Source of the DNA: a candidate division WWE3 bacterium
GTDB taxonomy: Bacteria > Patescibacteriota > WWE3 > UBA101185 > UBA10185
DNA: 64,000 bases
Assembly: GCA_052035175.1 (NCBI GenBank)
Contig: JBPOHV010000001.1
Span: forward strand, 169,569 to 233,568
Direction: 5' to 3'
Each line of letters starts with the position of its first letter. Position 1 is the stretch's first letter. This document shows, piece by piece, positions 26,166 to 40,827 of the stretch. The notes beneath the pieces are model-generated. The model had not been told where the DNA came from and searched no databases. It saw only the letters and a list, made by a program, of their open reading frames with translations. The position numbers were made by a program, and so were the translations under genes.

Positions 26166-27451
26166 GCGTTTATGACCTTTCTCGGTGTTTTGGCGATTCC
26201 TTGTGCTACAGCTCTGGTTGCAGACGATGAATTGTCAGCACTCATCACATTCATGATTTGGTTCCCGAGCTTTTTAAATGTTCCTGTTCTTGAAGTATAA
26301 AAAGCCATGCCCATCATGTAGGAGGGAATTTTAAGGAGGGTAAAAAATAGTCCAATCGCAACGGCAATAGAAATTAAAGAATTCTCAGTATGTGCAGGCA
26401 GGGCAAGAAATGAAGCAGCCAGTTGAATGACGACGACATGCACAAAAGCCATGAAGACTGTAACAAAGTACGTTTTGACAGCAATACTAGCCATATCAGA
26501 AAACTTAGGTAAGGTTGAGAGTAAAAAGATAAAGGGTGACAGCACTGCTCCCAGAGAAATGAGAATCAATCGGCTGATGTACATAAGAAGCAGGACAATC
26601 GAGAGAATCAAAAACAGAACTAAAAATACCAAAGTAATAAGCGGTGTAGCACCAGTAATAAATGCAGCTGGATTAATTGCATCCATGATCCAGGCTTGAT
26701 TGAGTCCACCGGTTGAATTGAGAACTGCCGCAACTAGAGCGTTGCAGGTAATAATCACGTAGTCGGCTAAGAATAAGGAGGTATTGGCTCCTAGAAACGC
26801 GAGTCCAAGTTTCGGAAGCAACACTTTGAGTTCCACTTCTTCAAAACCAAAAGTACTCGCACTCATAACTTGGAGGCCAAGCAGGGCTACGACGAGGACA
26901 AATAACGTATCGACAATCCCCAGACTTACCAGCCAGAAGTTTCTCACCACAGTGTTATTTAACAGTGTAGGAGTGGTCGTAAGATAGCCAATAACGCCAT
27001 TCACAATGGGAGCGGTGGAACTTTCTACGATATTTTGGATAAAACCGGAAACAGCATCAATTAGGACTTGAGTCAGACCTTCACTTGGTTCGACGCTTTC
27101 AATAGGAACAAGTTCAATCGGAATACTTCCACTAGGATTTTCTGTAGGTGTGAGTGCTTGAGTAAAGACAGAAACAATCAGATTGGCTGAAAGAACGAGG
27201 AGTAATCCGATCAGGGCATTCTTGATCGTGTGTTTGGCAGATTCCAAGGCATCAGGTCTACCTGTTGAGGTTATATAGGTGTAGCCACCCTTAATCAGGA
27301 AAAAGACTGAAGACAAAGAAGCGATGAGAGTTAAAATTTGCAGTGTGTTGTTGGTGTAATCAACTAACCCGGAATCAGCGGCAAAGGTATGAGAAGGAAA
27401 TAAAAAGAGACACAATATTATTACAAATAGGATGCATATACGCCTTATCAT
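26162..27451 (-). CDS. VirB6/TrbL-like polytopic membrane protein with N-terminal pilin-like segment
   Basis: Signal peptide plus at least six TM helices. The N-terminal segment 'GGYTYITSTGRPDALESAKHTIKNALIGLLLVL' is paralogous to the upstream VirB2-like pilin. Confidence 0.55.
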   Translation of the reverse strand: MIRRICILFVIILCLFLFPSHTFAADSGLVDYTNNTLQILTLIASLSSVFFLIKGGYTYITSTGRPDALESAKHTIKNALIGLLLVLSANLIVSVFTQALTPTENPSGSIPIELVPIESVEPSEGLTQVLIDAVSGFIQNIVESSTAPIVNGVIGYLTTTPTLLNNTVVRNFWLVSLGIVDTLFVLVVALLGLQVMSASTFGFEEVELKVLLPKLGLAFLGANTSLFLADYVIITCNALVAAVLNSTGGLNQAWIMDAINPAAFITGATPLITLVFLVLFLILSIVLLLMYISRLILISLGAVLSPFIFLLSTLPKFSDMASIAVKTYFVTVFMAFVHVVVIQLAASFLALPAHTENSLISIAVAIGLFFTLLKIPSYMMGMAFYTSRTGTFKKLGNQIMNVMSADNSSSATRAVAQGIAKTPRKVINA

Positions 27452-27482
27452 GAATGGATGCTTTCACTTTAGGCAGTGACAC

Positions 27483-27818
27483 TTACTGACCAGATCCGAA
27501 TGCTGTTGTTGCAAGTTGACTGATGACATTAGACAGTACAAAAGCAGCCAACACGATAGTTAATCCAACCGCTGAATACAAAATGGTCTTCTTTGATTTA
27601 TCCAGTGCTTCAGGACTCCCAGAACTCGTAATATATCCAAATCCTCCCCAGACCAGAAAACCTGCGGCAACTAAGCCCGAGAGAGTGACAAGAACTTGAA
27701 TAATACTCTGGATGAATGTTTGAATTTTAGAAACATCAGCGGACTCGGCAAAGGCTGGAGGAGCGGCGATAAGAAGTAAGGTGAGAATTATTGCTTGTGT
27801 GTAGATAAATTTTTTCAT
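27483..27818 (-). CDS. VirB2/TrbC-like pilin
   Basis: 111 aa. Signal peptide (AFA cleavage-like) followed by two hydrophobic segments. First gene of the T4SS operon. Confidence 0.5.
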   Translation of the reverse strand: MKKFIYTQAIILTLLLIAAPPAFAESADVSKIQTFIQSIIQVLVTLSGLVAAGFLVWGGFGYITSSGSPEALDKSKKTILYSAVGLTIVLAAFVLSNVISQLATTAFGSGQ

Positions 27819-27876
27819 ATTCCACCCCCTTTAGGTAAGTGTTTATACTTGGGGCAGAAATGAAACCTGATTTATA

Positions 27877-27899
27877 CAAAAAAACTGCCAAGGTGGCAG
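27877..27899 (-). terminator. possible terminator after uppP
   Basis: CTGCCA-AGG-TGGCAG hairpin, followed on the minus strand by a T7 tract. Confidence 0.3.
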
Positions 27900-27980
27900 C
27901 AGGTTGTTCAATTACTTGAACTGAGGAGATTATAGCAATCCAGATAGTAAAGTCAATTGGTTTGTACTAACCGTTTATTT

Positions 27981-28745
27981 TTAATAGTACAATAGAAAGC
28001 ATACTCCCAAAAATATTCTATAGTACCCAAAAATAGCAAAACCGTTCTTTTCTATGAGATTTAGAAACAGTTTAACTGCAATCCAAGCTGAAATAAAAGA
28101 AATGACACTGCCTATCCCAAGTAGTAAAAACTCGTAGTTTGAGAGAGAAGCTGACGTTTTGAGTAAGTCAAAACCGGTTGCGGCAAGCACGGTGGGAACT
28201 GCAAGTAAAAAGGAGAACTCCGTTGCCTGCTTTTTTGAAAGACCAGTATACATCCCTCCCAGTATTGTTGCAGCAGCTCGAGAAACTCCTGGGATTACAG
28301 AGATACTTTGGGTCAAACCAATAATAAACGCGTTCTTGTATGAAATACTCTCAATCTCTACGTCCTTGCTTATGTGTAGCGATTTATTTTTATCAACGAT
28401 GACCAGTACTATTCCTCCTAAGATAAGAGCAATAGAAACAACGAGTGGATTAAATAAAAATATTTTGATGGTTTTGTAGAATAAAAAACCAATTATGGCC
28501 GTAGGCACAAATGCTACAGCCAACTTTTTGTAGATTTGAATACTACTAAGGAAGCTTTTTGCATATAAACAAACGACTGCAAGAATCGCTCCAAGCTGAA
28601 TAGCAATCTCAAAGGTCTTCACAAATTCCTGATTTGATAACTGCAAAACAGAAGACGCCAAAATCATATGGCCTGTAGAAGAAATTGGTAGAAATTCTGT
28701 GAAACCTTCGATGATGCCTAAAATAGTTACATCAAAAAAGTTCAT
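27981..28745 (-). CDS. uppP: undecaprenyl-diphosphatase (BacA/UppP, bacitracin resistance)
   Basis: 'EGFTEFLPISSTGHMIL' N-terminal signature. 8 TM helices. Length 254 aa. Confidence 0.85.
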   Translation of the reverse strand: MNFFDVTILGIIEGFTEFLPISSTGHMILASSVLQLSNQEFVKTFEIAIQLGAILAVVCLYAKSFLSSIQIYKKLAVAFVPTAIIGFLFYKTIKIFLFNPLVVSIALILGGIVLVIVDKNKSLHISKDVEIESISYKNAFIIGLTQSISVIPGVSRAAATILGGMYTGLSKKQATEFSFLLAVPTVLAATGFDLLKTSASLSNYEFLLLGIGSVISFISAWIAVKLFLNLIEKNGFAIFGYYRIFLGVCFLLYY

Positions 28746-28746
28746 G

Positions 28747-29235
28747 CTATTGAATTACTTCAACTTGCCCTTTCATCCATGGATGAGGTGAACAATGGTA
28801 AGGGTTATTGGAAGAGTTAAGAAATGTAAAAGAATAACTTTCTCCTTTTGCCAAAAGCGGTCCTTCAAACTTACTGGGATCGTCTCCCAGTTTTGCATCA
28901 TGAGGTTTGTCCGAGTCTTCATGATCAAGCATGACGTTATGTTTCATATCATCTTCGTTCGTCCAAGTGACTGTAGTTCCAGCTTGAATTCTTATTTTTT
29001 TGGGAACGTATTCAAAGTTCTTAATTACCACTTTTACTTCTTTTGATGCAGTGAAATCTACCATATCATTGCTTTGAGCTTGAGTTGGAGTAGTAAGAAC
29101 CTCATCATTTATATGTGTTGAAGTAGGTATAATAGAAGTTGTATAGTAGTTCTTGTTTATATTATAACCTAATAACATTACACCAATCCCAAGAAACACT
29201 AGAATTACAAGTCCAATAAGAAGTGGCTTTTTCAT
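28747..29235 (-). CDS. secreted cupredoxin (plastocyanin/azurin-like blue copper protein)
   Basis: Signal anchor. Type-1 copper ligand pattern: H ('HNVM'), then C-terminal 'YHCSPHPWM' (C-x2-H-x2-M). Confidence 0.6.
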   Translation of the reverse strand: MKKPLLIGLVILVFLGIGVMLLGYNINKNYYTTSIIPTSTHINDEVLTTPTQAQSNDMVDFTASKEVKVVIKNFEYVPKKIRIQAGTTVTWTNEDDMKHNVMLDHEDSDKPHDAKLGDDPSKFEGPLLAKGESYSFTFLNSSNNPYHCSPHPWMKGQVEVIQ

Positions 29236-29308
29236 TTTTGTAGTTTAACAAAAAATTAGTTTGAAAACAAAAAATTTAATATATTTAGTTCCTAACCAAT
29301 ATTTACAC

Positions 29309-29773
29309 CTAAGTGAAATTTTCCAAATATTTTTTTATATTCTCACCTTCGTCTTGAATATGTTTCTTGGCAACGTCGGTCTTCACAAAGAACTGAAAAA
29401 TTTTATCTATTAAGCCCGCCCGATTGCCATACTCAACGTACGCAGTCAGTTTGGATGTATTTTTTGAAACACTTTCTATAGAAAAATATCCCATCCCAAA
29501 GTTGAATAAAGAGAAAGGAAACGCTGGTTCATATTCAATATACTCATTCTTTTTTATTTTTGTGACTTTAAGGATTAAATAAAGAGGAAAACCACCGATT
29601 TTCTCCAAAAAGTGGAAAACACACCCACGCTGATTCAAATCTTGAAAGATCACTTTACAAAAAACATGATCTTTAGGATGCCAGGTTTTGTAAAGAGTAT
29701 CTATACGAGTAAGAAAGTTAAAAACGCTTTGAGTATTGGCATTAATAATTGTTTCTTGTTTGATGATTATCAT
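29309..29773 (-). CDS. hypothetical protein
   Basis: 154-aa ORF, no motif. Confidence 0.3.
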   Translation of the reverse strand: MIIIKQETIINANTQSVFNFLTRIDTLYKTWHPKDHVFCKVIFQDLNQRGCVFHFLEKIGGFPLYLILKVTKIKKNEYIEYEPAFPFSLFNFGMGYFSIESVSKNTSKLTAYVEYGNRAGLIDKIFQFFVKTDVAKKHIQDEGENIKKYLENFT

Positions 29774-31683
29774 GTGCTTATGTTATTTTTATCAGTACCA
29801 AAATGAAATAACCTCAGACTATTAGCCACTACAACTACAGTCATCCCTACATCTGCAAATATTGCCAGTGCAATGTTACCCATTCCAGAAAGAGCAAGTA
29901 TAAGAAATATTATTTTAACTCCAACTGAAGCCACAATATTTACTCTGATAGTCCGAACAGAAGCTCTACCAAGTTTAACTAGAAAAGGAATAAGCTGTAG
30001 ATTGTTATTCATAAGTGCTATATCAGCATTTTCAACAGCCACTTCTGAACCTATGGCACCCATAGCAATACCCACCGATGCAATAGTTAGTGCTGGAGCA
30101 TCATTGACACCATCACCAACCATAGCAACATGTGTATATTTCTTAAGCAAGTTTGACAGCTGAACCACTTTGTCATCAGGAAGAAGATTAGCGTGAATTT
30201 CATCAACTCCAACTTCTTGAGCAACATAATTAGCTGCAGAGACATTATCACCAGTAAGCATTGCCGTTTTTACTTTTAATTGATGTAGAATTTTAATGGT
30301 GGTCGCGCTTTCTGGACGAATTGTATCAACAACTCCAATAACACCCTTAATTTTCTTCTCATCGCAAACGACAATAGCTGTCTTACCTTCTTTTTCAAAT
30401 CCCTCAACGATTTCGACTACACGCTTATCCACATCGTGTTCCTCCATAACAAACCGTAAGGTGCCTATGCAGTGGTGTCTGTCGACACAGACCAGACACT
30501 CACCACTGATACCTTTACCCATGGTAGCTTTGAAGTTTGTGTACTTGTGCATTTCCCCCGCAATTTTATGAGCACTTTCAACGATGCTTTTGGCAATTGG
30601 ATGTTCAGAAAACGCTTCAGCACCTGCCATACAAATAAGAAGCTCTTCTTTAGAAACACCGTTGAGTGGTATAACATCAGAAACTGTTGGTTCGCCTTTG
30701 GTTAAAGTTCGCGTTTTATCAAAAGCAATGGCTTTGATCCTACCAATTTCTTCTAAAAACTGCCCACCTTTAATGAGAATTCCACGTCTAGTGGCATTGC
30801 CAATAGCGGAAAAGATGGTAATAGGAGTGGAAATGACAAGTGCACAAGGACAAGCAATAAGAAGAAGAGTTAAGCTCTGGGTAAACCAGAATGTAAACGG
30901 TTGACCAAAGATAACCACTGGCACTACGGTAAGGAAGATAGCAAATGCAAACATGGTTGGCGTGTAGTAGGAAGAAAATTTTTCTATGAATTTAGCGGCC
31001 TGAGATTTACGTTCCGCAGCCTGGAAGGTTAGATCGACAATCTTCGCAAGTGTTGTGTCTTTAGAAACTTTAGTTACTTTTATTTCTAAATACCCCTGGC
31101 TATTGAGAGTTCCGGCAAATACCAGTTCACCTGTATATTTATTTTTCGGAAGTGGCTCCCCGGTGATGGTGCTTTCATCAACCAGCGACTCCCCGTTAAC
31201 AACTATGCCATCTAGAGGAATGTAATCCCCAGGTTTAACCATTACAATATCTCCGATAGTGATCTGTTCGATTGAAATTTTCTCTTTCTGTCCCTTAACC
31301 AGTGCTGTTTTGGGGGTCTTTTCAACCAATTCTTCAAGAGCGTTTTGGCTTTTGGTAATACCAAATTCCTCAAGTGCTTCACTTACTGCAAAAAGAACGA
31401 TGACAATGACTGCTTCTTCTAATTCACCTAAGTACAATGCACCAAAAGTAGCAACAGTCATCAATAAATTGATGTTAGAAAAGTGCAAATTTACAAAACT
31501 CTTAAACCCATTAATGATTACATTTCTACCAAAGAAAAAAATAATAGCACCGAAAACAGGTATCTCAATAAATTGAGGTAAATGAATTGAGAATAGAGAC
31601 AAAATCTCAAAAGGAATAACAAGAAGTAACGTTAGCGCCAATCTTTTAAATTTATTGTCTTTTAGTAAATCATAAACAAGCAT
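29770..31683 (-). CDS. P1B-type heavy-metal translocating ATPase (ZntA/CadA-like, no N-terminal metal-binding domain)
   Basis: TM6 'CPC'. TM7 Lys and TM8 'ADVGMT' (Asp-x-Gly), the Zn/Cd/Pb subgroup pattern. 'MLTGDN' and 'GDGVNDAPAL' motifs. Phosphorylation motif reads 'DKTRTLT' instead of DKTGT. Confidence 0.7.
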   Translation of the reverse strand: MLVYDLLKDNKFKRLALTLLLVIPFEILSLFSIHLPQFIEIPVFGAIIFFFGRNVIINGFKSFVNLHFSNINLLMTVATFGALYLGELEEAVIVIVLFAVSEALEEFGITKSQNALEELVEKTPKTALVKGQKEKISIEQITIGDIVMVKPGDYIPLDGIVVNGESLVDESTITGEPLPKNKYTGELVFAGTLNSQGYLEIKVTKVSKDTTLAKIVDLTFQAAERKSQAAKFIEKFSSYYTPTMFAFAIFLTVVPVVIFGQPFTFWFTQSLTLLLIACPCALVISTPITIFSAIGNATRRGILIKGGQFLEEIGRIKAIAFDKTRTLTKGEPTVSDVIPLNGVSKEELLICMAGAEAFSEHPIAKSIVESAHKIAGEMHKYTNFKATMGKGISGECLVCVDRHHCIGTLRFVMEEHDVDKRVVEIVEGFEKEGKTAIVVCDEKKIKGVIGVVDTIRPESATTIKILHQLKVKTAMLTGDNVSAANYVAQEVGVDEIHANLLPDDKVVQLSNLLKKYTHVAMVGDGVNDAPALTIASVGIAMGAIGSEVAVENADIALMNNNLQLIPFLVKLGRASVRTIRVNIVASVGVKIIFLILALSGMGNIALAIFADVGMTVVVVANSLRLFHFGTDKNNIST

Positions 31684-31707
31684 AGGTCCATTTTACACAG
31701 ATATTAA

Positions 31708-32352
31708 TCAATAATTTACATAATAATTAATTTTTGCATCAGCTTTGAGAGAAGCAATCCATGATGGAGCTTCCTGACTTAGTTTTTGGCTTTTTAGCTG
31801 TTGTGCTATTTGGTTTTTTATTTCAGTTTCCTTACCATCTACCAATTCAACCTTATTGTCCTGGATGTATTTGTTTATCTCCTCATCTGTTACTTGGATT
31901 TTATCCGCAAGAACTTTCTCAATTTTCTTTTGAACTAATAAATGCTTTTTCAAAGCTTCTTTAGTCATTCCTTGTTGGAGTAGTGCAGCATCAAGCGTGC
32001 TTCCCTGCTGGATAATTGATACTTCAATGTTTTTTATTTCCAGATCAATTTCATCACTGGTTACAGTGATACCTTTCTTCTTAGCTTCGTTGTCAATTAA
32101 CTTCTCGGTAATAAGGGCATCTAAGGTGTTTTTACCACCTTGCTTTTCCAATTCTTGAATAACACTTAATCTTGTTACCGGGCGCCCGTTTACCATAGCT
32201 GCGACAAAAGCACCTTTAAAATAAAACAACGATCCAAAAACAATCCCAATAAGTACAATGGATAAAAGTAATTTTCTACTTTTCAATAGCCTGAATTTTT
32301 CTGCTTTTGGCTGCTCAAAATTAGCTTCTGACTTAGTTATTTTTTCATTCAT
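31708..32352 (-). CDS. SurA N-terminal-domain-like membrane-anchored chaperone
   Basis: N-terminal TM anchor, then a helical domain resembling the SurA/PrsA N-terminal chaperone domain. Confidence 0.4.
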   Translation of the reverse strand: MNEKITKSEANFEQPKAEKFRLLKSRKLLLSIVLIGIVFGSLFYFKGAFVAAMVNGRPVTRLSVIQELEKQGGKNTLDALITEKLIDNEAKKKGITVTSDEIDLEIKNIEVSIIQQGSTLDAALLQQGMTKEALKKHLLVQKKIEKVLADKIQVTDEEINKYIQDNKVELVDGKETEIKNQIAQQLKSQKLSQEAPSWIASLKADAKINYYVNY

Positions 32353-32455
32353 ACGTTTCCTCTATTAAATTTTTATACCTTAAAATCTCCCATACACAAA
32401 TTTTCTAACTTCTACTATACCGATGCGTATTTGACCACTCACTTTCTAATGATAG

Positions 32456-32935
32456 CTATTCTACAATTAGCTTTCCTTCCATTTCTTTATGCCCTTGACC
32501 ACAGAAAAGACTACAATAAAATCTAAACGTACCCTTTTTAGTTGCAGTAAATTCAACAACTGTTGTGCCAACAGGAAGGTCCTTTTTGATACCTAATTCG
32601 TCGATTGCAAACCCATGGGGCACATCAAGATTGTTGACGGTAAGCTTAATATTATCTCCTTCCGAAACTGTAATAGTTGCTGGAGAAAAATCAAACTTTT
32701 TGGCAGTCATTGTAAATTCTTTGACACCATTTGTTACTGGGGTATTTGTAGCATCTGGCTGAATTGTAACTGATGGACTTTGAGTTACAGAGCTTCTAGT
32801 TTGGGAAGTAGCATCTTTATTTCCAAATAATGCATATACACCGACTAGTACAATGCCAATCACTACAACGCCTATAATCATAGGATTCATAGCTTGCTTT
32901 GGTTGATCGTTTTGATTTGTTATATGTTCATCCAT
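32456..32935 (-). CDS. membrane-anchored cupredoxin with CuA-like centre (COX2-like)
   Basis: TM anchor. C-terminal 'H...FYCSLFCGQGHKEM' = C-x3-C-G-x2-H-x2-M CuA-type ligand set. Confidence 0.5.
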   Translation of the reverse strand: MDEHITNQNDQPKQAMNPMIIGVVVIGIVLVGVYALFGNKDATSQTRSSVTQSPSVTIQPDATNTPVTNGVKEFTMTAKKFDFSPATITVSEGDNIKLTVNNLDVPHGFAIDELGIKKDLPVGTTVVEFTATKKGTFRFYCSLFCGQGHKEMEGKLIVE

Positions 32936-32951
32936 ACAATATCACCCCCTT

Positions 32952-34139
32952 TCAACAATCTGTTCCAAGTCCACCAACACAATTTTCAGTTGGTGGTGTT
33001 CCTCGCTCTGGACATTTCTCCGAATACATACACGCTATATCTGTTACCGAGTCGATCTGCTTTTGCATCGTTGCTTGATCTTCTGAACCATATGAAATAA
33101 CGATTCTATCAAGGTCAGTAAATTCATACTCACCCAACTTATCGTTTAGTTTGCCATTCACGTATAATTTCAACGTATTTTTTTCATCACTGCAATACTG
33201 CTTTTTATCATCAGTCACAAAACAATTCTTGTCAAAGCCAATGCCAATAGTTTTGAAGAAATACCCAAGCGTTACACCCTGGCGATGCTTGTGCGTAACG
33301 TCTCCATTACCATCATGCAAATGAGCATAAGGGTCTAGAGGTGCTTCCTTTGAATCTTGATATTTGGCCGAGGTGAAATCAAAAGCTTTTCCATTAAGAT
33401 ATACCTTAAAATCAGCATGCTCATGAACCTTGTCCCCAAGTACTGGTTCACCAAGTTTCGGAGCTTTGAGAATTGCAGCTTTAATGAGAGTCTTAAAATC
33501 GTCAGGAGTCTTTGGATTTTGGATTTTCTCACCGTTTAGGAAAAATGTTGGTGTCCCAGTGTTACCGAGTTTTTCTCCAGATGCCTTGTCTCGCTCAACC
33601 CTATCTTTCACTTCCTTTGAGACCACATCTTTTTTAAATTGTTCAATATTTAATCCAATTTGTTTGGCGAAGCCTTCAAAAATGGCTGGATCAGCTACTG
33701 GTTTCTCACCCCAAGTTTTTTGATTGTCAAACACAATATTGTGCATCTCCCAGTACTTTCCTTGACGGCTTGCGGCTTCTACAGACAAAGCTGCCTGCAT
33801 ACCATTTTTGTGTCCAGGAAGGGGAAAGTATCGATTTACAAACCGAACATCATTTTTGAACTCTTCTGAGAGTTGTTTCATAAGTGGATAGTATGCTCCA
33901 CAGGCTTCACACTCAAAGTCAAGATATTCAATGAGGGTAACTGACGCGTCTTTATTTCCTTTAATATATTCGTCAGCAGCAACCTCTAGTAGTTGCTTTT
34001 TATCATCAGAAAGTACAGCTTGGCCGGTTGGTGCATTACTGCTTGTTAAATTAGACTTGTTGGCAAAGAAAATAATTCCAGCAAATATTGCAATAGTAAT
34101 GCCAACTACACTTAAAATAAATTTCCTATCACTTGTCAT
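32952..34139 (-). CDS. DsbA-like thiol-disulfide oxidoreductase with Cys-rich C-terminal extension
   Basis: TM anchor. 'FECEACGAYYP' CxxC in a thioredoxin-fold context. Extra C-terminal ~150 aa with five Cys. Confidence 0.5.
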   Translation of the reverse strand: MTSDRKFILSVVGITIAIFAGIIFFANKSNLTSSNAPTGQAVLSDDKKQLLEVAADEYIKGNKDASVTLIEYLDFECEACGAYYPLMKQLSEEFKNDVRFVNRYFPLPGHKNGMQAALSVEAASRQGKYWEMHNIVFDNQKTWGEKPVADPAIFEGFAKQIGLNIEQFKKDVVSKEVKDRVERDKASGEKLGNTGTPTFFLNGEKIQNPKTPDDFKTLIKAAILKAPKLGEPVLGDKVHEHADFKVYLNGKAFDFTSAKYQDSKEAPLDPYAHLHDGNGDVTHKHRQGVTLGYFFKTIGIGFDKNCFVTDDKKQYCSDEKNTLKLYVNGKLNDKLGEYEFTDLDRIVISYGSEDQATMQKQIDSVTDIACMYSEKCPERGTPPTENCVGGLGTDC

Positions 34140-36451
34140 ATTTTCTTTCCTTTCAGGCGCAGTGAATTAGTTACAACAGATACACTACTAAGACCCATGG
34201 CAGCTCCAGCAATTGCAGGATTTAGAAGTATACCAAAAAATGGATATAAAACGCCCGCAGCAATAGGAATGCCGATGATGTTATAGAAAAATGCCCAGAA
34301 AAGATTTTGTTTGATAATATTCATTGTGGCTCGTGCCAACTTAATGGCTTTAGGAAGTTTAGAAATGTACCCACCTAAGAGTGTGATTCCCGCCGATTCA
34401 ATCGCCACATCGGTTCCAGTTCCCATTGCAATGCCTACATCAGCTGTGGCTAACGCTGGTGCATCATTGATGCCATCACCAACCATTGCGACTTTGTATC
34501 CTTCTTTCTGCAGCTTCTTGATTTCACCGGCTTTGTCGCCAGGTAATATTTCTGCAATCACTCGATCAATACCTACAAGCTTTGCGATATACTGCGCCGT
34601 ACGTTGGTTGTCTCCAGTGAGCATGGCAACTTTAATACCCTGTATATGAAGCTCTGCCACTGTTTCCTTAGCGTCATCTTTAATTGTGTCGGCAATACCA
34701 ATGTAGGCAATAACGTGCTTTTTAGTCATAAAAACGACGGGAGTCTTGCCTTGTGACGCAAAATTGTTAATTACTTCTTCGTCCACTTGTATTTTGAGAT
34801 TGGTAGTTAGTTTAAGATTACCAGCATAATATTCTGTAGCATCTATAGTTCCTTTGAGCCCTTTTCCTTCAATGGCTTCAAAATCCATCACTTTGTGAAA
34901 GCTAAGCTTTTCTTGCTTTGCTTTTTCAACGACTGCTTGAGCAAGAGGGTGCTCCGAATGACTCTCTAAGGACGCGAGGAGTTGTAAAATTTCTTTCTCA
35001 GAATAAGAGCTAGTTGTTTGAACATCGGTCACTTCCGGTGTACCTTTGGTAATTGTGCCAGTCTTATCCATTACTACAAAGTTAATTCCATCAAACTTCT
35101 CTAAACTCTCGGCATTTTTAATTAAGATTCCATTTTCTGCAGCTTTACCCACACCAACAATAATGGCGGTGGGAGTTGCCAGTCCCATGGCACATGGACA
35201 GGCAATCACCAGAATTCCAACAAAGCTCAAGATTCCCAAGGTGAGGGCTTGGGAGAATGGCATAAACTGACTGCCAACCACTAGCCACAGCACAAGGGTG
35301 AAAATCGCTAGAACGAGTACAACTGGAACAAAAATTGCTGATATTTGATCAGCCATACGTTCAATTGGCGCTTTTGAACCTTGGGCTTCCTCAACCATTT
35401 TGATGATTTGGGAAAGCATGGTATCACTTCCAATCTTTGTAACTTGAATTCTCAAAGAGCCCTGTTTATTGATAGTTGCACCGATAACAATATCTTCTGG
35501 TCCTTTGTCCACCGGAATTGATTCTCCAGTGATCATTGACTCGTCAACTGAAGATTTACCTTCAAGAATGATTCCATCAAGAGGGATCTTTTGGCCAGGT
35601 TTCACAATCACAATATCACCAACCACTACTTGCTCAATTGGTATTTCGACCTCTTTACCATTACGAATGACAAGAGCATTCTTAGCCTGCAATCCCAAAA
35701 GCTTTTCTATGGCCTCCCCAGTTTTAAGTTTGGAGCGAGCTTCTAGGAATTTTCCTAGAGTGATAAATCCGATAACAACAATCGTGACATCGTAATAAGT
35801 TTGTTGGGTATTTACATAAGGAGCGAGAACTTTATCAAATGCTGTCACAACGAAGCTATAAAGGAAAGCAACTGAGGTACCAATCCCCACTAGGGTGTCC
35901 ATGTTGGCAACTCGGTGTTTGAAGAAGCGAACCATTCCTTGCAAATACGGAACGCCTATAACGAATAATGTATATGTTGCAAAGAGGGGAAGTAGGTGGT
36001 GAAAAAATTCCATAATAGCCTCTGGCATATGAGGCAAAAGCATAAGAGGATCTGCCCCAATTTCCCAAGTCATTACAAAGATACTTAGTGCTACCATAGG
36101 TAAGACAATCTGAACGTGACGTTGTAGCTTAGCAAGGTCTTTCAGTTTTTGGGCTTTAATTGAGGCGTCAGATGAAATTGGAGTCATCATGTCATGACCC
36201 GCGTGCATGGAGCGATCCATTCCCATCGGCATGTCCATTTGGCTATCCACGAGAGAATAGCCTAACTTAGCAATTTCCTCATTCATCTGAGGAACATCTA
36301 CTTTTTGAGGATCAAATGAAACTGAAGCCTTTTCAGTACCATAGTTAACGGAGCATGACTCAACTCCATCAATTTTCTCAAGTTTTCTTTTAATAATTGA
36401 TGCGCATGAAGCGCAGTGCATTCCTTTGACAGGAAATGATTTGCTTTCCAT
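34136..36451 (-). CDS. copA: copper-translocating P1B-1 ATPase CopA
   Basis: N-terminal HMA 'GMHCASCA'. Met/His-rich stretch. 'CPC', 'DKTGTIT', 'GDGINDAP', TM7 'YN', TM8 'MGLSS'. Confidence 0.85.
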   Translation of the reverse strand: MESKSFPVKGMHCASCASIIKRKLEKIDGVESCSVNYGTEKASVSFDPQKVDVPQMNEEIAKLGYSLVDSQMDMPMGMDRSMHAGHDMMTPISSDASIKAQKLKDLAKLQRHVQIVLPMVALSIFVMTWEIGADPLMLLPHMPEAIMEFFHHLLPLFATYTLFVIGVPYLQGMVRFFKHRVANMDTLVGIGTSVAFLYSFVVTAFDKVLAPYVNTQQTYYDVTIVVIGFITLGKFLEARSKLKTGEAIEKLLGLQAKNALVIRNGKEVEIPIEQVVVGDIVIVKPGQKIPLDGIILEGKSSVDESMITGESIPVDKGPEDIVIGATINKQGSLRIQVTKIGSDTMLSQIIKMVEEAQGSKAPIERMADQISAIFVPVVLVLAIFTLVLWLVVGSQFMPFSQALTLGILSFVGILVIACPCAMGLATPTAIIVGVGKAAENGILIKNAESLEKFDGINFVVMDKTGTITKGTPEVTDVQTTSSYSEKEILQLLASLESHSEHPLAQAVVEKAKQEKLSFHKVMDFEAIEGKGLKGTIDATEYYAGNLKLTTNLKIQVDEEVINNFASQGKTPVVFMTKKHVIAYIGIADTIKDDAKETVAELHIQGIKVAMLTGDNQRTAQYIAKLVGIDRVIAEILPGDKAGEIKKLQKEGYKVAMVGDGINDAPALATADVGIAMGTGTDVAIESAGITLLGGYISKLPKAIKLARATMNIIKQNLFWAFFYNIIGIPIAAGVLYPFFGILLNPAIAGAAMGLSSVSVVTNSLRLKGKKI

Positions 36452-36479
36452 AATTACTTTCTTTCATATCCAGCAGAAC

Positions 36480-36701
36480 TTATATCTGCTCAGCAATAAC
36501 AGTTTCATAACCAAGCTTTGTGATAACGGCAATAATCTGTTCATGTTTTATTTTATCTGGGTCGTAGGTAACCACTGAAATTTGTTTGGCATAATGTGTC
36601 TTTGCTTCCTTCACTCCTGCTAAATCTTCAAGATCAAAATCAATGTTGATCGCACAACTCGTGCAGTGCATGCCGACAATTTTTAGCGTTATTGTTTTCA
36701 T
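36480..36701 (-). CDS. copZ: copper chaperone CopZ (HMA domain)
   Basis: 73 aa with 'GMHCTSCA' MxCxxC motif and ferredoxin-like length. Confidence 0.8.
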   Translation of the reverse strand: MKTITLKIVGMHCTSCAINIDFDLEDLAGVKEAKTHYAKQISVVTYDPDKIKHEQIIAVITKLGYETVIAEQI

Positions 36702-37753
36702 ATATTTGAGTTGGGAACAACATTTATTTCACCTCTAAACATTCCCATGCTGCACATAAAAGCAAGCGGACCTGGCTCTGCTGGTGTTGTAAACTCAAGC
36801 GTATCTGATTGGCCAATAGGAACAATACGTTGTAGTCCCAATTTTGGAACGGTGAGTGCTTGTGTACACCCACCTCCACCTTGGTTCACGATATTAAATT
36901 TTACCTTCGATCCGGCTCTAACATTGACAACTGCTGGCTCTGTACGATAGCCGTTTTGAGTTATAAAGATCGTTGCTTCCTTTACTGTGTTTGAAGCGGT
37001 CGCAGTAGCTGCAACTCGATTGCTATCACAAAAACTGATAGTACAATTAATATTAGTTATTACATTCTCAAAGGTGAAAGCACTGCCACTCAGTGCTAAA
37101 GCTCCATTAAAGTTATATGCGGCAATCAATATAATTGCTCCGGCTGCAACTTTGTTAAACGTTCCACTTAGTGAATTTCCTAGTTTTCTGGCTGCATAGC
37201 CAAAGAGGAAAAACAACGGTGAGGTTCCTAGTATAAAGACAAACATTGTTATTGCTCCAGCAAAAGCAGATCCGGTTGCAATTGCATATGCCATCATCGC
37301 TTGAGTGGCTCCACATGGGATGAGCACAGTCATCGCGCCTAATAATGCTGGACCAAATACCGCCTTGCTTTTTGATTGATTTTTGACCAACCTAGTCAAA
37401 AACCTTGGTGGTTGAATGATGAAATAACGAAAAATTGGATGAACCTGAAGAAGATTTAGAGCAGTACCTATCATAAAGATCACGGCAGCAAATTGCAAAG
37501 CCACACGGGCTGAAAGGGAGAGTTGGAAAACTGTTCCAATACTTCCCAACAAAAAGCCAAGAAGTGTATAGGCAATAAGACGGGTAACCAAAAAGGAGAG
37601 AATCGGTAGAAGATGTCCGAATAGTTTTATTTCTTCTTCCAGTTTGTTTTTTTCTTGCTGGGCAATTGAACTAGCAAGAAGCCCGCCTTGTACTGCCAAG
37701 CATGTTAGTCCTCCTGCAAATAGTCCTGTGACAAAGATTGATGTAATTTCCAT
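36698..37753 (-). CDS. polytopic membrane protein with C-terminal cupredoxin-like Cys/Met domain
   Basis: ~8 TM helices (TauE/DsbD-like permease feel). Soluble C-terminal beta domain with 'GGGGC' and 'FMCSMGMF'. Overlaps copZ by 4 nt. Confidence 0.4.
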   Translation of the reverse strand: MEITSIFVTGLFAGGLTCLAVQGGLLASSIAQQEKNKLEEEIKLFGHLLPILSFLVTRLIAYTLLGFLLGSIGTVFQLSLSARVALQFAAVIFMIGTALNLLQVHPIFRYFIIQPPRFLTRLVKNQSKSKAVFGPALLGAMTVLIPCGATQAMMAYAIATGSAFAGAITMFVFILGTSPLFFLFGYAARKLGNSLSGTFNKVAAGAIILIAAYNFNGALALSGSAFTFENVITNINCTISFCDSNRVAATATASNTVKEATIFITQNGYRTEPAVVNVRAGSKVKFNIVNQGGGGCTQALTVPKLGLQRIVPIGQSDTLEFTTPAEPGPLAFMCSMGMFRGEINVVPNSNI

Positions 37754-37782
37754 ATATTTTCTTTCATTTCATACTAAAAAAA

Positions 37783-38541
37783 TTAACTTTGCAAAGCCTT
37801 CTCGATCATCGGCTTTACTTGTTCAAAAGGTAAAGCACCGTTAATAAATTGTGTAGTGCCTTTCGCATCAATAATTATGGTACCTGGTGTTCCAGTTACG
37901 CCTTCTTCTGTTCCCTTAGCCATTTGATCCTTGACTTTCTGTGCCATTTCTCCCGAGTCTAAACATTGTTTAAAAGGTGCTTCATTTAATCCGAGCTCTT
38001 GGGCAAGAGGAACAAGTTTGTCTAGGGCAAAACCGGTTCCATTGCCACTTGTTCGTGCAAAAATTGCATCCGCGTATTTCCAGAAACTATCATTACCACC
38101 AAGTTTTCCGGCACACTCTGCCGCTTCTGCCTCTTTTTGAGCATTGGCGTGGAAGGAAAGCGGGTAGTGGCGATAAACCCACTTTACTTTATCACCGTAT
38201 TCCTTCATGACTTGCTGCATAGTTGGATGAAACCTAATACAAAATGGGCACTCTAAATCAGAATATTCAACCAGCACTACTTTGGCATTTTTATTACCCT
38301 TATACCAATCTACGTCCGTCACTTCTGGTTTTTTGGTCGCTTGTTTTGGAGCGGGTGGTTGAGCAGCGGCATTTCCTGCAGATGGCGCGTTTCCTTGATT
38401 TACAGCACCTGCTACCACTGCACCTTTTTCTAAATATTTCACTTTAGTTGTCAGAGAACCAATTACAAATGAAGCTCCAATAAGAAGGACAACTAGTATG
38501 GAAGGGAAATTTATAAAACTACGTTTTTTTTCTTCTGACAT
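37783..38541 (-). CDS. membrane-anchored DsbA family thiol-disulfide oxidoreductase
   Basis: TM anchor. Pro/Ala linker. 'LECPFC' CxxC. DsbA-like helical insertion. Confidence 0.65.
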   Translation of the reverse strand: MSEEKKRSFINFPSILVVLLIGASFVIGSLTTKVKYLEKGAVVAGAVNQGNAPSAGNAAAQPPAPKQATKKPEVTDVDWYKGNKNAKVVLVEYSDLECPFCIRFHPTMQQVMKEYGDKVKWVYRHYPLSFHANAQKEAEAAECAGKLGGNDSFWKYADAIFARTSGNGTGFALDKLVPLAQELGLNEAPFKQCLDSGEMAQKVKDQMAKGTEEGVTGTPGTIIIDAKGTTQFINGALPFEQVKPMIEKALQS

Positions 38542-38611
38542 ATTTTATTTCTATAATTTAATAATCTACTACAAACTGTAGTAGAACAAGGAATGATTGT
38601 CAATAAGCTAC

Positions 38612-39625
38612 TTATTTAGAAGTAAAAGCTGAGGTATAAGGAATAGAACTATTTGAGGTGCTACTCATTGGTGGTATAACTGTGGCATTTTCTCTACACC
38701 AATTAGCGCACTCACTATCGTTCATGCATACCATCATAACATCCTCGTTATTTTCATGCAGATCTATTGCATTAACTGGTGCAATTAATAATCCATACAT
38801 CATAAGTATTGATATCACACTTATTCCTATACGGAGAAATGAAACTTTTGGGTAAACTGCTCTCTGCTCAATCAAGGCTTTTATTCTCAATTCCAATGTA
38901 TCCCATTCAGCAAGAGAAGTTGCAAGTACGAATACTGGTGTGGGAGTACAACACATTAATTTCTTAAGGACTGAAACAAGTGATTCGTTTCCATTCATTG
39001 CTTGAGTAACCGCATGATCAGCGTTGACCTCTCTTTGTATTTGGTAGTGCTTGATAATATCAATCAGTATTGGAAGAAATGGGAACAGCGAGTGTGTCAT
39101 TGATGCCAATAAATGAGTCAGGCTATCTCGATGTTCTAGATGGTATTTTTCATGGTGAAGGACAGCCTCAAGTTCGCTCATGGTGGTCAATGCCAAAAGT
39201 CTAGTTGAAATATAAATTTTAGGGTTCCGGATGCCAAAACAAAATGCAAATGGTTTGTTATCGTTTATAACGAATACTTTGTTAAGTAAGTTTATCTTTT
39301 TTATTAAAGTACTGTAGCGTATAGGCAATGGTTGGGTTTGCAAGGCTTTTCTAAAGAAATAAATTCTGGTAATGGTATAAGCTAATTTAAGGAATACTAT
39401 CCCTACCATTAGGATTCCTATGATAAATATAAACGGACCAACCTCCTTGGGTATTTGAATAGAGAATGACCGAAGCATCTCTTGGCAGTAGTAAACAGTC
39501 TTATGGAGAAAAAGAGGCAGGTATTTTTGAATAATGACCTTTACTGAAAGGACTAATATCCCAAAGAGTCCAGAAAAAATAATTAAGTGCTTATGCTTTT
39601 TTATCATATTGATCCAAAAGCTCAA
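38612..39625 (-). CDS. BlaR1/MecR1-family M56 signal-transducing metalloprotease lacking a penicillin-binding sensor domain
   Basis: 4 TM helices. 'HEKYHLEHRD' HExxH gluzincin motif in the expected loop. Short Cys-containing C-terminal tail instead of a transpeptidase-like sensor. Confidence 0.6.
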   Translation of the reverse strand: MSFWINMIKKHKHLIIFSGLFGILVLSVKVIIQKYLPLFLHKTVYYCQEMLRSFSIQIPKEVGPFIFIIGILMVGIVFLKLAYTITRIYFFRKALQTQPLPIRYSTLIKKINLLNKVFVINDNKPFAFCFGIRNPKIYISTRLLALTTMSELEAVLHHEKYHLEHRDSLTHLLASMTHSLFPFLPILIDIIKHYQIQREVNADHAVTQAMNGNESLVSVLKKLMCCTPTPVFVLATSLAEWDTLELRIKALIEQRAVYPKVSFLRIGISVISILMMYGLLIAPVNAIDLHENNEDVMMVCMNDSECANWCRENATVIPPMSSTSNSSIPYTSAFTSK

Positions 39626-39971
39626 GGAAATATTTCCGTTTTGCTTCAGGCAAACTATCTACTGACTGCGCAAACGAGGCAATTGCTATATCACCAAATG
39701 AGGTAACAAGTTTTTGCATAAACGACTGGGCAATGTTTCTGCTATATCGCTCTTTTGAAACTCTCGCGCTATACATAATTGTGCCTTGGTCCTCAATTTT
39801 TTTAACCAATCCTTTGTCATGAAGTCTTTGCAAAACTGTTGCTATTGTCGTGTATGCCAGTTGTCTAGTTTGATTTATTATTTCTAATACATCTCTAACT
39901 GAGCAGTTTTCTTGCTCCCACACGACGCTCATAACTTCTTGTTCAAGGTTGCTTAATGTTTTAGCTGTCAT
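39591..39971 (-). CDS. BlaI/MecI/CopY family transcriptional repressor
   Basis: Winged-helix 'SNLEQEVMSVVWEQENCSVRDVLEII...AYTTIATVLQRLHDKGLV', typical of penicillinase-repressor/CopY family. Confidence 0.7.
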   Translation of the reverse strand: MTAKTLSNLEQEVMSVVWEQENCSVRDVLEIINQTRQLAYTTIATVLQRLHDKGLVKKIEDQGTIMYSARVSKERYSRNIAQSFMQKLVTSFGDIAIASFAQSVDSLPEAKRKYFLELLDQYDKKA

Positions 39972-40053
39972 ACTACTACAGATTGTAGTTGCTATTCAAA
40001 AAATATTCAAGTTAAGGATTATAAATGATCCTTATGACTGTTCTAATCTGCAC

Positions 40054-40827
40054 TTATGGATCTTTAGGCTCCACTTTCTGTAATGTATCTCTGGTTAGTC
40101 CTTTTGTTTTTATTAGTTCCCTTGTTGAAAGGTAAAAATGTAGCCTTGCTTCATCCTCAAGCTTCTTTCGAATCTCTTTATGCAAATAGTTTTTTGACCG
40201 ATCATCTGGGCAGACAAAAATAATTTCTGGGAATGGTTTATCAGTGTGATCCTGCCAGTACTCATTCTCGTAATAGTCAAAATATTGCTTAACTCGCTTA
40301 TAAAGAACATTTTTCGGTGGTAATTCATCAAAGATATCAAGGAAGTATCTTTTTGTTCTCCCATTTGCTTCTTCGATTGAAAAATAAGCATCGGGATTGG
40401 GCAGGATAAGATACTGCATATCATCTAAATCCACTTTGGTATAAAAATTCAGTTTGGCTTTGGTTTTGTTAGTGAGTTCAACTAAAGAAAGATAAATATC
40501 TGCTACAAACAAACAGTGGTTTTTAAACTGTGTTGATAGCGTTGGTTCCCTCCAAACTCGATCCAAAAGCTCAGGCTTCACTGTACTGAATTTGTCTGGA
40601 TTACTCTTCAAATACTTTCTGCCTTTTAATCCTAATGAATACAGAGCTGGTATGGTAACTGTTTTGGGATTGTAATAACGTCTGATGTGTCCAGATTCGG
40701 TTAGTTCGTTGAGCCAGATGATAATGCGGTTGAAGTGTTTGTGATGGAGTAGATGTTGGATGTGAATACGGTGTAAGAAACGGAAGCGATAGAGATAATT
40801 AAATATGTTGTCGTGTTGGTTGTTCAT
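40054..40827 (-). CDS. putative replication-relaxation family protein (relaxosome candidate)
   Basis: Basic/His-rich N-terminal wHTH-like region. Position immediately downstream of the coupling protein. No HUH motif seen. Confidence 0.3.
   Translation of the reverse strand: MNNQHDNIFNYLYRFRFLHRIHIQHLLHHKHFNRIIIWLNELTESGHIRRYYNPKTVTIPALYSLGLKGRKYLKSNPDKFSTVKPELLDRVWREPTLSTQFKNHCLFVADIYLSLVELTNKTKAKLNFYTKVDLDDMQYLILPNPDAYFSIEEANGRTKRYFLDIFDELPPKNVLYKRVKQYFDYYENEYWQDHTDKPFPEIIFVCPDDRSKNYLHKEIRKKLEDEARLHFYLSTRELIKTKGLTRDTLQKVEPKDP

Follow-up and report, generated by a model that had tools for sequence, protein, structure and literature searches.

A BlaI-type repressor and a short M56 protease as a candidate copper-responsive proteolytic switch for a copper and thiol defence island in a WWE3 bacterium

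Which signal is read by a repressor-protease pair that heads a run of copper and thiol-redox genes in an uncultivated, small-genome bacterium, and how might that signal reach the promoters of the run? The question is raised by an island on the minus strand, at positions 27981-40010, of a 64-kb stretch of a candidate division WWE3 genome (GenBank assembly GCA_052035175.1, contig JBPOHV010000001.1, positions 169,569 to 233,568), the whole of which is referred to here as the window. A sequence-only reading had described this island as metal and thiol-redox cargo under the control of a BlaI/CopY-family repressor and an M56 protease devoid of a beta-lactam sensor, and this core description was borne out, as all twelve open reading frames (ORFs) that it listed were recovered on the minus strand with unchanged coordinates and with calls backed by Pfam and NCBIfam. 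The island proved to extend further at its low-coordinate end than had been described, however, since the run continues to a gene for the undecaprenyl-diphosphatase UppP/BacA (27981-28745) and a terminator-like hairpin (27884-27902), giving thirteen tightly packed genes from 39971 down to 27981. With a probability of roughly 0.6, the sequence evidence set out below points to a proteolytic switch resembling PetR/PetP of Synechocystis sp. PCC 6803, triggered by copper and driving a copper and thiol defence regulon.

The regulatory pair consists of a BlaI-family winged-helix repressor of 126 amino acids (aa; 39591-39971, minus strand; Pfam Penicillinase_R, 4.3e-26) and an M56/M48 zinc metalloprotease of 331 aa (38612-39607, minus strand, within the ORF 38612-39625; Pfam M56 (PF05569), 3.2e-12, and M48). 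The exact core CTACANNNTGTAG was found twice in the window, at 38569-38581 and 39976-39988, and nowhere else, compared with 0.07 matches expected by chance and with 0 of 100 shuffles that contained two. Operator 1 (ACTACAATCTGTAGTAG, 39973-39989), which comprises the dyad CTACA-N3-TGTAG, ends 1-2 nucleotides (nt) before the repressor ATG, while operator 2 (38566-38584), a perfect 8-3-8 palindrome (CTACTACAGTTTGTAGTAG), is located between the stop codon of the M56 gene and the start of dsbA. A promoter scan placed a sigma-70-like promoter at each of these sites, i.e. a repressor-protease promoter (TTGAAT-17-TACAAT, 39982-40010, minus strand, 9/12 match) and a cargo-operon promoter (TTGACA-17-TACAGT, 38575-38603, minus strand, 10/12 match), and in both cases the left half-site of the operator coincides with the -10 box. 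As the repressor ATG lies within a few nt of this box, the corresponding transcript is predicted to be nearly leaderless. The occurrence of an operator upstream of the repressor gene, on which the sequence-only reading had been made to depend, was thus confirmed, and the element is conserved in approximately 40 related loci; of the anticipated TACAnnTGTA-like form, the dyad itself is present at both promoters, yet with a spacer of 3 nt and not the 2 nt of the CopY cop box. When the region 27400-40200 was scanned with up to two mismatches, the two-mismatch matches were all intragenic and none was detected in the other intergenic gaps. The repressor would accordingly be expected to bind the CTACA-N3-TGTAG dyad. 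An Rfam scan of the window returned three tRNAs only, so that no riboswitch or leader-RNA explanation applies.

To assess conservation, 43 Microgenomates-type loci were retrieved from species-representative genomes with the protease family profile, together with a flank of up to 10 kb on each side, after which ORFs were called and compared with the proteins of the window. The closest relatives of the island genes were encoded by Woese-, Gottesman-, Levy-, Roizman- and Collierbacteria assemblies, from which the host, whose contig measures 925 kb, would very probably be a candidate phyla radiation bacterium of the Microgenomates type. The repressor-protease pairing was observed in 38 of the 43 loci and in every complete one, the remainder being cut by contig ends, and the order repressor, protease, DsbA was retained in 37/43, most of the others ending at a contig edge. 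With at most one mismatch, the dyad precedes the repressor gene in 33 of the 39 loci that could be evaluated for this position, and it is found between the M56 stop codon and the next gene, which is nearly always dsbA, in 40 of 42. Furthermore, of 71 exact operator sites, 38 carry a perfect TTGACA 16-18 nt upstream of the TACAnT half-site (background 0.14%), and 51 carry a match to this hexamer of at least 5/6 (background 2%), indicative of a shared operator-promoter architecture.

Additional operator copies within these loci were shown to precede genes for two- or three-domain multicopper oxidases (loci L001, L008, L011, L026 and L027), CsoR-type repressors (L023, L032 and L035), CopA (L015), a type-1 cupredoxin (L016), DsbD-type proteins (L007, L028 and L040) and extended DsbA proteins (L017 and L024). 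A gene for a DsbD-cupredoxin protein is followed directly by copZ in eleven loci, and unbiased clustering of neighbouring genes adds DUF305, YtkA-like, Met-rich, DUF3105, DUF302 and rhodanese proteins as well as a two-component pair. As judged from these sequences, the regulon across relatives is consistently one of copper and envelope thiols. This composition bears on the proposal that the pair represents a cell-envelope stress system, similar to CenIR of Clostridioides difficile or the mycobacterial sensor-less BlaR, which would respond to damage of the wall or the lipid carrier and to which the copper genes would be mere neighbours. Such a system would fit the unassigned, non-beta-lactam signals of most M56 proteins that lack a transpeptidase domain (PMC13492132), and also the UppP/BacA gene that closes the run in the window; nevertheless, UppP was found beside the pair in 0 of the 43 related loci, and the operator-fronted genes are copper and thiol genes across genomes, which renders this explanation very unlikely.

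Two side observations concern how such loci are assembled. The locus in the window is a mosaic: its dsbA-to-copA block (34164-38605) exhibits ~75% DNA identity to L019 and L024, with the similarity beginning at the promoter-operator of dsbA, while the regulator pair of L019 and L024 shares only 38-48% protein identity with that of the window, which itself (38612-39996) is closest to L001 and L002 (63-64% DNA identity). The two parts of the mosaic thus meet at the conserved operator or close to it, which suggests module exchange at this element. In addition, a Collierbacteria contig (L028, 2533-5396) carries two regulator-protease pairs, the second being divergent (21-33% identity) and equipped with its own operator copies, followed by genes for DsbD and CopA in place of DsbA, which suggests duplication and subdivision of the regulon.

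With the operators in place, the next issue is how the repressor would be removed from them. In a full-length alignment with Staphylococcus aureus BlaI (1SD4) and MecI, Ser99-Phe100 of the repressor align with Asn101-Phe102, the known cleavage site of BlaI, and the motif ASFAES was found to be near-invariant in 37 repressor homologues. Cleavage of the repressor by the M56 protease would be consistent with this alignment, and de-repression triggered by a metal or by redox state may be its outcome. Conversely, the CopY-like half of the earlier BlaI/CopY designation was not sustained, while its BlaI-like half was. The C-terminal CxCx4CxC motif of CopY is absent from the repressor of the window and from its 36 homologues (37 sequences in total), most of which possess a single Cys, located in the winged helix. 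The best NCBIfam match of the repressor is indeed CopY_TcrY (TIGR02698), yet with 53.7 bits it remains far below the cut-off of 121.95 and is limited to the DNA-binding half (profile positions 2-86 of 130). The absence of the Cys motif and the sub-threshold match make direct copper sensing by the repressor unlikely and proteolysis the expected route. An arrangement in which the repressor senses copper as CopY does, with CopZ delivering Cu(I) and the M56 protein acting as a housekeeping or turnover protease, could be argued from the presence of CopZ in the regulon, from this best match and from the resemblance of the operator to the cop box TACAnnTGTA (PMC10141476). Besides the missing motif and the low, partial score, however, the operator spacer measures 3 nt instead of 2, and the repressor and M56 genes overlap and occur together in every complete locus, so that this arrangement is highly improbable, and CopY-type direct sensing was rejected.

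The protease itself most likely starts at ATG 39607, which yields a protein of 331 aa, and not 337 aa as initially read, whose gene overlaps that of the repressor by 17 nt; homologues measure 330-335 aa and an independent gene call from Logan likewise gives 331 aa. The HExxH motif, which had been recognized from the outset, spans residues 152-156 (39140-39154) and is complemented by Glu193, with H152, E153, H156 and E193 being invariant in homologues. Hydropathy analysis revealed three strongly hydrophobic segments (residues 6-28, 52-85 and 255-283) and a weak one (166-185), where four transmembrane (TM) helices had previously been counted. On the basis of the three strong segments and the positive-inside rule, the N-terminus and the protease domain are predicted to face inwards, and the loop formed by residues 29-51 and a 54-residue C-terminal tail to face outwards. 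The M56 family profile matches BlaR1 (8EXP) across residues 99-323 of 585 (E=1e-9), and an AlphaFold2 model with a predicted local distance difference test score (pLDDT) of 80 has BlaR1 structures 8EXQ, 8EXP and 8EXR as its best Foldseek matches; a single-sequence phmmer search against the PDB produced a weak HtpX match only, and the family profile was needed to reach BlaR1. As a separate observation, 89 of 91 close homologues and 98 of 104 diverse representatives retain a cytoplasmic Cys123 (39239-39241) in the strand motif FAFCFG, which immediately precedes the HExxH helix. HtpX-type proteases have Thr or Ala at this position of their related NAFATG motif; Cys123 might function as a cysteine switch or provide an inner metal ligand close to the catalytic zinc.

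Neither a penicillin-binding domain nor any other known domain was identified by Pfam or NCBIfam in the 54 residues that follow the last M56 helix, the match to the NCBIfam model blaR1_generic reaches 40.9 of the 400 bits required, and the profile match stops at BlaR1 residue 323, all of which upholds the earlier statement that the protein lacks a beta-lactam sensor. Beta-lactam sensing was therefore rejected. According to a 2026 survey (PMC13492132), only ~6% of M56 proteins possess a transpeptidase domain, and the architecture seen most often is one that ends in a short and undefined C-terminus, so that the lack of a sensor domain is not in itself unusual. The label 'sensor-less' is nonetheless a misnomer in the present case, as the tail and the first outward loop hold conserved Cys, His and Met residues that likely constitute a sensor.

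This candidate sensor was delineated from homologues, for which an exhaustive M56 search returned 115 representatives at a threshold of E<=1e-30 and 785 when this was relaxed to E<=1e-10. The outward loop between helices 1 and 2 (residues 29-51; 39455-39523, minus strand) contains Cys41 (39485-39487) within HHTxYYCQ, and this residue is present in all 91 close homologues and in all 104 diverse representatives, with identities down to 28%. The loop retains Cys41 together with His35/36 and has no Met pair, M44 occurring in 35/91 homologues. The C-terminal tail (residues 278-331; 38615-38776, minus strand), with the pattern ELHxxxxDVMMxCx5Cx3C, bears an H-x9-C-x5-C-x3-C motif with Met-Met before the first Cys. 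Among the 91 close homologues, H284 is conserved in 75, C294 in 88, C300 in 79 and C304 in 76, and the corresponding counts for the three Cys residues among the 104 diverse representatives are 95, 86 and 83. Cys residues of loop and tail occur as 1+3 or 1+1, resulting in an even total in 91/91 close and 90/104 diverse homologues.

Copper as the signal is suggested by the copper genes of the regulon and by analogy with PetP, and several observations weigh against the copper-triggered switch. The even number of outward Cys residues is explained no less readily by structural or regulatory disulfides than by a metal site, and the ligands proposed for PetP, two loop Met residues, are not among the residues conserved in the M56 family of the window. 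In the AlphaFold2 model, pLDDT falls below 60 for the tail and for residues 44-52, and Cys41 is located in a predicted helix in a block with a pLDDT of ~47-59; because of this low confidence at the tail and near Cys41, no metal-site geometry can be read from the model. DsbA is, moreover, a more constant regulated gene than CopA (37/43 loci, compared with 27/43 in which CopA lies inside the fetched flank), which could mean that thiol redox is the primary signal. Finally, only two operators are present in the window, and control of the genes past copA is predicted because no terminator or promoter was detected in between.

These points lead directly to a different use of the same circuit, in which the M56 protease reads the thiol-redox state of the envelope: the loop and tail Cys residues would reside in disulfides made by DsbA, their reduction or mis-pairing would switch the protease on and DsbA would be raised, a homeostatic feedback for which copper is merely one of several disturbing stresses. 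The constant first position of DsbA after the operator, steadier than that of any copper gene, the even Cys totals in loop and tail and the frequency of DsbD-like reductant transporters in the regulon would all be accounted for in this way. Against this, the other operator-fronted genes are specifically copper genes (multicopper oxidase, CsoR, CopA and cupredoxins), the conserved His and the Met-Met beside the first tail Cys resemble copper ligands, and copper-dependent action has been shown for PetP, the only characterized analogue. We consider thiol-redox sensing possible but doubtful as the primary function; since thiols of this kind are exactly what copper attacks, the copper and redox readings may in fact describe a single mechanism.

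For the copper-triggered switch, the following sequence of events is proposed. In the resting state, a dimeric BlaI-type repressor would occupy the 8-3-8 palindrome CTACTACA-N3-TGTAGTAG, the left half of which is the -10 box, and would thereby hold down two strong sigma-70-type promoters. One of these would serve the repressor and M56 genes, so that the pair would be autoregulated; the other would drive dsbA, the dsbD-cupredoxin fusion, copZ and copA, and probably the remainder of the run down to uppP. Copper, most likely as Cu(I), would bind the Cys of the outward loop and the His/Met/Cys tail of the M56 protein, and the activated protease would then cut the repressor at Ser-Phe-Ala in its dimerization helix, freeing both promoters. 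Among the induced proteins, CopZ and CopA would export cytoplasmic Cu(I) and the P1B-2 ATPase would export Zn or Cd, the DsbA-like proteins, supplied with reductant by the DsbD-like transporter, would preserve the thiols of the envelope and repair them in the manner of the Scs system, and the cupredoxins and a His-rich domain would bind copper outside the cell.

The cargo genes, all on the minus strand, are compatible with these roles. The first of them encodes a membrane-anchored DsbA-like thioredoxin-fold protein with a CPFC motif (37783-38541; Pfam Thioredoxin_4/DSBA). It is followed by a DsbD_2 and Cupredoxin_1 fusion (36698-37753; Pfam, 1.3e-33 and 5.8e-10, respectively), which combines a CcdA-like thiol-reductant transporter with an outward cupredoxin-like domain whose Cys and Met residues (GGC ... 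FMCSMGMF) are conserved among 13 homologues. A CopZ-type HMA copper chaperone (36480-36701; Pfam HMA, 9.3e-15), the gene of which overlaps that of the fusion, precedes CopA (34136-36451), a Cu(I) P1B-1 ATPase with one HMA domain (2.2e-16) and with the motifs CPC, YN and MxxSS in its translation; its assignment to the P1B-1 subfamily is supported by the NCBIfam IB1_Cu model (TIGR01511, 601.6 bits against a cut-off of 397) as well as by the motifs and the HMA domain. A second ATPase (29770-31683), with CPC, TM5 Lys and TM6 DxG motifs, is of the P1B-2 (Zn/Cd/Pb) type, as it passes the IB2_Cd subfamily cut-off (TIGR01512, 496.8 against 313.5 bits). It does not reach the ZntA equivalog cut-offs; the earlier description of a ZntA/CadA-like P1B ATPase without an N-terminal metal-binding domain agrees with this score and with the lack of an HMA match. 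Between the two ATPase genes lies, among others, a gene for a SurA_N-like putative chaperone with an N-terminal anchor (31708-32352; Pfam SurA_N_3, 9.1e-10). The gene for a 154-aa protein (29309-29773), for which Pfam and NCBIfam gave no match beyond a faint one to Polyketide_cyc2 (E=0.076), overlaps the P1B-2 ATPase gene by 4 nt.

The gene adjoining copA encodes a DsbA-like domain (CEAC) with a 170-aa His/Cys-rich extension (32952-34139, 395 aa), of which only residues 58-221 are matched by Pfam. The extension (32952-33464) constitutes a separate C-terminal domain without a Pfam family, in which HxH..HxHD..HxH and six Cys residues are conserved; in DPANN archaea (Micrarchaeota and Aenigmarchaeota), it makes up a whole protein of ~190 aa (50-60% identity). 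Its AlphaFold2 model (pLDDT 90.5) bears a weak likeness to beta-grasp and transcobalamin beta-domain folds, with no match to PDB folds at E<0.001, and it is probably an outward metal-binding domain common to the candidate phyla radiation (CPR) and DPANN.

Two further cupredoxins were assigned to the run: a membrane-anchored protein with a CuA-like CxxxCxxxHxxM site (32456-32935; Pfam Cupredoxin_1, 4.7e-14, and COX2, 3.6e-07) and a membrane-anchored or secreted type-1, amicyanin-like protein with CxPHPxM (28747-29235; Pfam Copper-bind, 1.7e-17; NCBIfam amicyanin, 1.8e-16, below its cut-off). The ligand sites read earlier for a CuA and a blue-copper protein were confirmed, and such proteins recur in the same regulon in other genomes. 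Homologues of the CuA-like protein were found in nine related loci, some with a mononuclear type-1-like site and not the binuclear motif. That both proteins act as electron carriers of an unrecognized respiratory or nitrite-reducing chain brought in by the element would be in keeping with their full type-1 and CuA-type ligand sets and with a proposal, made for some CPR genomes (PMC5581439), that cupredoxins donate electrons to NirK. The island and its flanks, however, were found to hold no gene for an oxidase, NirK, NosZ or a cytochrome, and the cupredoxins travel with the CopA/DsbA regulon, the type-1 homologue in L016 being operator-fronted; together with the alternation of binuclear and mononuclear sites among homologues, this makes a role as electron carriers unlikely. 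From their sequence context, the cupredoxins are better read as copper-handling proteins of the regulon than as parts of a respiratory chain.

The UppP/BacA gene (Pfam BacA, 4.2e-72), located 1 nt from the type-1 cupredoxin gene, is the last of the co-directional run. The terminator scan, which identified the hairpin after uppP, detected no intergenic terminator-like hairpin between the cargo promoter and 27884-27902. As neither an internal operator nor an intergenic terminator was seen, the second promoter is predicted to drive the genes down to uppP, and the genes past copA probably belong to this second transcription unit. Within 27884-27956, between uppP and a pilin gene, a strong promoter-like TTGACT-16-TATAAT with an upstream TG was observed, followed by the G+C-rich hairpin and a T-run ~65 nt before the pilin start; this arrangement could terminate the cargo run, provide the pilin gene with a leader or attenuator, or do both. 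Outside the island, a second thiol-reductant system is encoded at 10192-11910, a 572-aa fusion of DsbD_TM, AhpC/TSA-redoxin and Thioredoxin_10, which is probably the chromosomal counterpart of the DsbD-like protein of the island.

The low-coordinate flank of the island encodes a VirB4/TraG-like protein, PrgI, a membrane protein with a T4SS_pilin domain and a pilin, and the high-coordinate flank a Replic_Relax protein, a TrwB/TraG-D coupling protein and a large serine recombinase whose gene abuts tRNA-Glu. Both the mating-pair formation genes and the coupling protein of an integrative conjugative element (ICE) are thus present, and by its gene content the region 19165-45901 looks like a complete conjugative element within which the island resides, the G+C content of the island stretch being slightly above that farther out. 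When the remainder of the window was searched for matches of at least 13 nt to the tRNA-Glu region, as would represent attachment repeats, none of use was found. The sole relaxase-like candidate is the Replic_Relax protein (PF13814, 9.7e-10), the gene of which adjoins that of the coupling protein. Because a 2025 survey found relaxases to be mostly missing from type IV secretion system (T4SS) clusters of Patescibacteria and left the Replic_Relax family unmentioned, this protein is a candidate for the missing relaxase of these clusters. The setting of the island bears on whether such clusters can be true conjugative elements with cargo. In the related loci, a Replic_Relax and coupling-protein pair was also observed beside copper cargo in L002, L007, L016 and L023, while L035 displays a coupling protein and a VirB4-like gene only.

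Short M56 proteases were, in addition, noted next to metal genes outside the CPR. A Salmonella IncC plasmid (NZ_CP100354.1; L044, 5150-12221) carries a BlaI-family gene and a gene for a 326-aa M56 protein with a His-rich loop and C-terminus directly upstream of a heavy-metal efflux operon encoding TolC, an adaptor (membrane fusion protein) and CusA/CzcA. A similar M56 gene is present on a Shewanella plasmid (NZ_CP051530.1), where it is known from its M56 annotation alone, and on a Bacillus plasmid (L045, 5276-6507) a 276-aa M56 protein, the loop of which is rich in Cys, is encoded close to genes for a metal ATPase and ArsR regulators and to bacA. Such proteins may be metal-sensing variants beyond the CPR and the cyanobacteria, and they hint that short M56 proteases took on metal sensing more than once. 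It may be suggested, tentatively, that short M56 proteases form a broad, hitherto unrecognized class of extracytoplasmic metal or thiol sensors whose ligands are tuned to the adjacent resistance genes, with the CPR version a thiol switch closed by copper and reset by DsbA, carried by a conjugative element through which copper defence is passed among Microgenomates. If so, the ligand sets would be Met residues in PetP, a His-rich loop and tail in the proteobacterial plasmid copies and a Cys pair or quartet bridging loop and tail in the CPR, and one sensor would integrate copper load and oxidative folding in the envelope. For part of the large M56 pool without a known sensor domain, the switch proposed for the window provides a concrete signal hypothesis. 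With operator and promoter known at base resolution and shared by ~40 genomes, the predicted circuit lends itself to reconstruction and direct testing in a model host, which is rare in CPR biology.

Among known systems, BlaI/BlaR1 and MecI/MecR1 of staphylococci and Bacillus share with the pair of the window the order of repressor and protease genes, TACA/TGTA-type dyads over promoters and homologous proteins (repressor to 1SD4, E=1e-9; protease core profile to 8EXP, E=1e-9). The M56 protein of the window differs, however, in lacking both the penicillin-binding domain and the first helix of BlaR1, the regulon does not consist of beta-lactamase or PBP2a, and the scores are far under the NCBIfam cut-offs for BlaR1 and BlaI. 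CenIR of C. difficile and other non-canonical BlaIR systems similarly combine a BlaI-like partner with a short, poorly modelled M56 C-terminus without Pfam match; CenIR governs a cell-wall regulon, whereas the regulon of the window points to copper and thiols and its tail is conserved in sequence. CopY/CopZ/CopA of Enterococcus hirae and streptococci has in common with the island the repressor superfamily, a TACA..TGTA box and the regulation of CopZ and CopA, but the repressor of the window is without the CxCx4CxC Zn/Cu site, its operator has a spacer of 3 and not 2 nt and a dedicated protease is always co-encoded. On the side of the cargo, ScsABCD of Salmonella and Proteus, which pairs a DsbA-like thioredoxin-fold protein with a DsbD-like membrane reductant transporter in copper tolerance, is regulated by CpxR/CueR; in the window, a cupredoxin-like domain is joined to a DsbD-like protein that belongs to the DsbD_2 type, and regulation would be of the BlaI/M56 type.

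The regulatory logic is thus not without precedent, and M56 proteins without a sensor domain are common; among the papers searched, however, none was found that describes the Cys-based candidate sensor, a copper regulon headed by DsbA, an operator-promoter defined at base level across a CPR lineage or the ICE-like setting. PetR/PetP, which serves a swap of photosynthetic proteins, is the one case in which copper sensing by regulated proteolysis has been demonstrated experimentally. In uncultivated bacteria with small genomes, the same logic apparently runs an entire regulon for copper resistance and thiol repair, through a different and highly conserved candidate sensor. In Synechocystis, degradation of PetR requires both PetP and copper (bioRxiv 10.1101/2020.07.31.226407; PMC7896320), PetR being a BlaI-family factor that binds GACA-N3-TGTC and PetP an M56 protease without sensor domain whose gene overlaps petR (bioRxiv 10.1101/2020.07.31.226407). 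Compared by published description (Garcia-Canas et al. 2021), the two pairs share a BlaI-family factor and an M56/M48 protease without beta-lactam domain, overlapping genes, a Phe at the BlaI cleavage position (F100 of the window repressor corresponding to F102 of BlaI, with SFA near-invariant in 37 homologues), an inverted-repeat site with a 3-nt spacer and copper-protein targets that include a cupredoxin. They differ in the site itself, GACA-N3-TGTC for PetR as opposed to TACA-N3-TGTA in the window, and in the protease, as PetP has four helices and two conserved Met residues in a 14-residue loop, whereas the family represented in the window combines three helices with an invariant Cys in the loop and a tail rich in Cys. 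Finally, the PetR regulon comprises four genes and effects the exchange of plastocyanin and cytochrome c6, whereas the predicted regulon of the window is autoregulated, encompasses copper export, thiol-redox functions and oxidases, and is carried by a mobile-looking CPR element.

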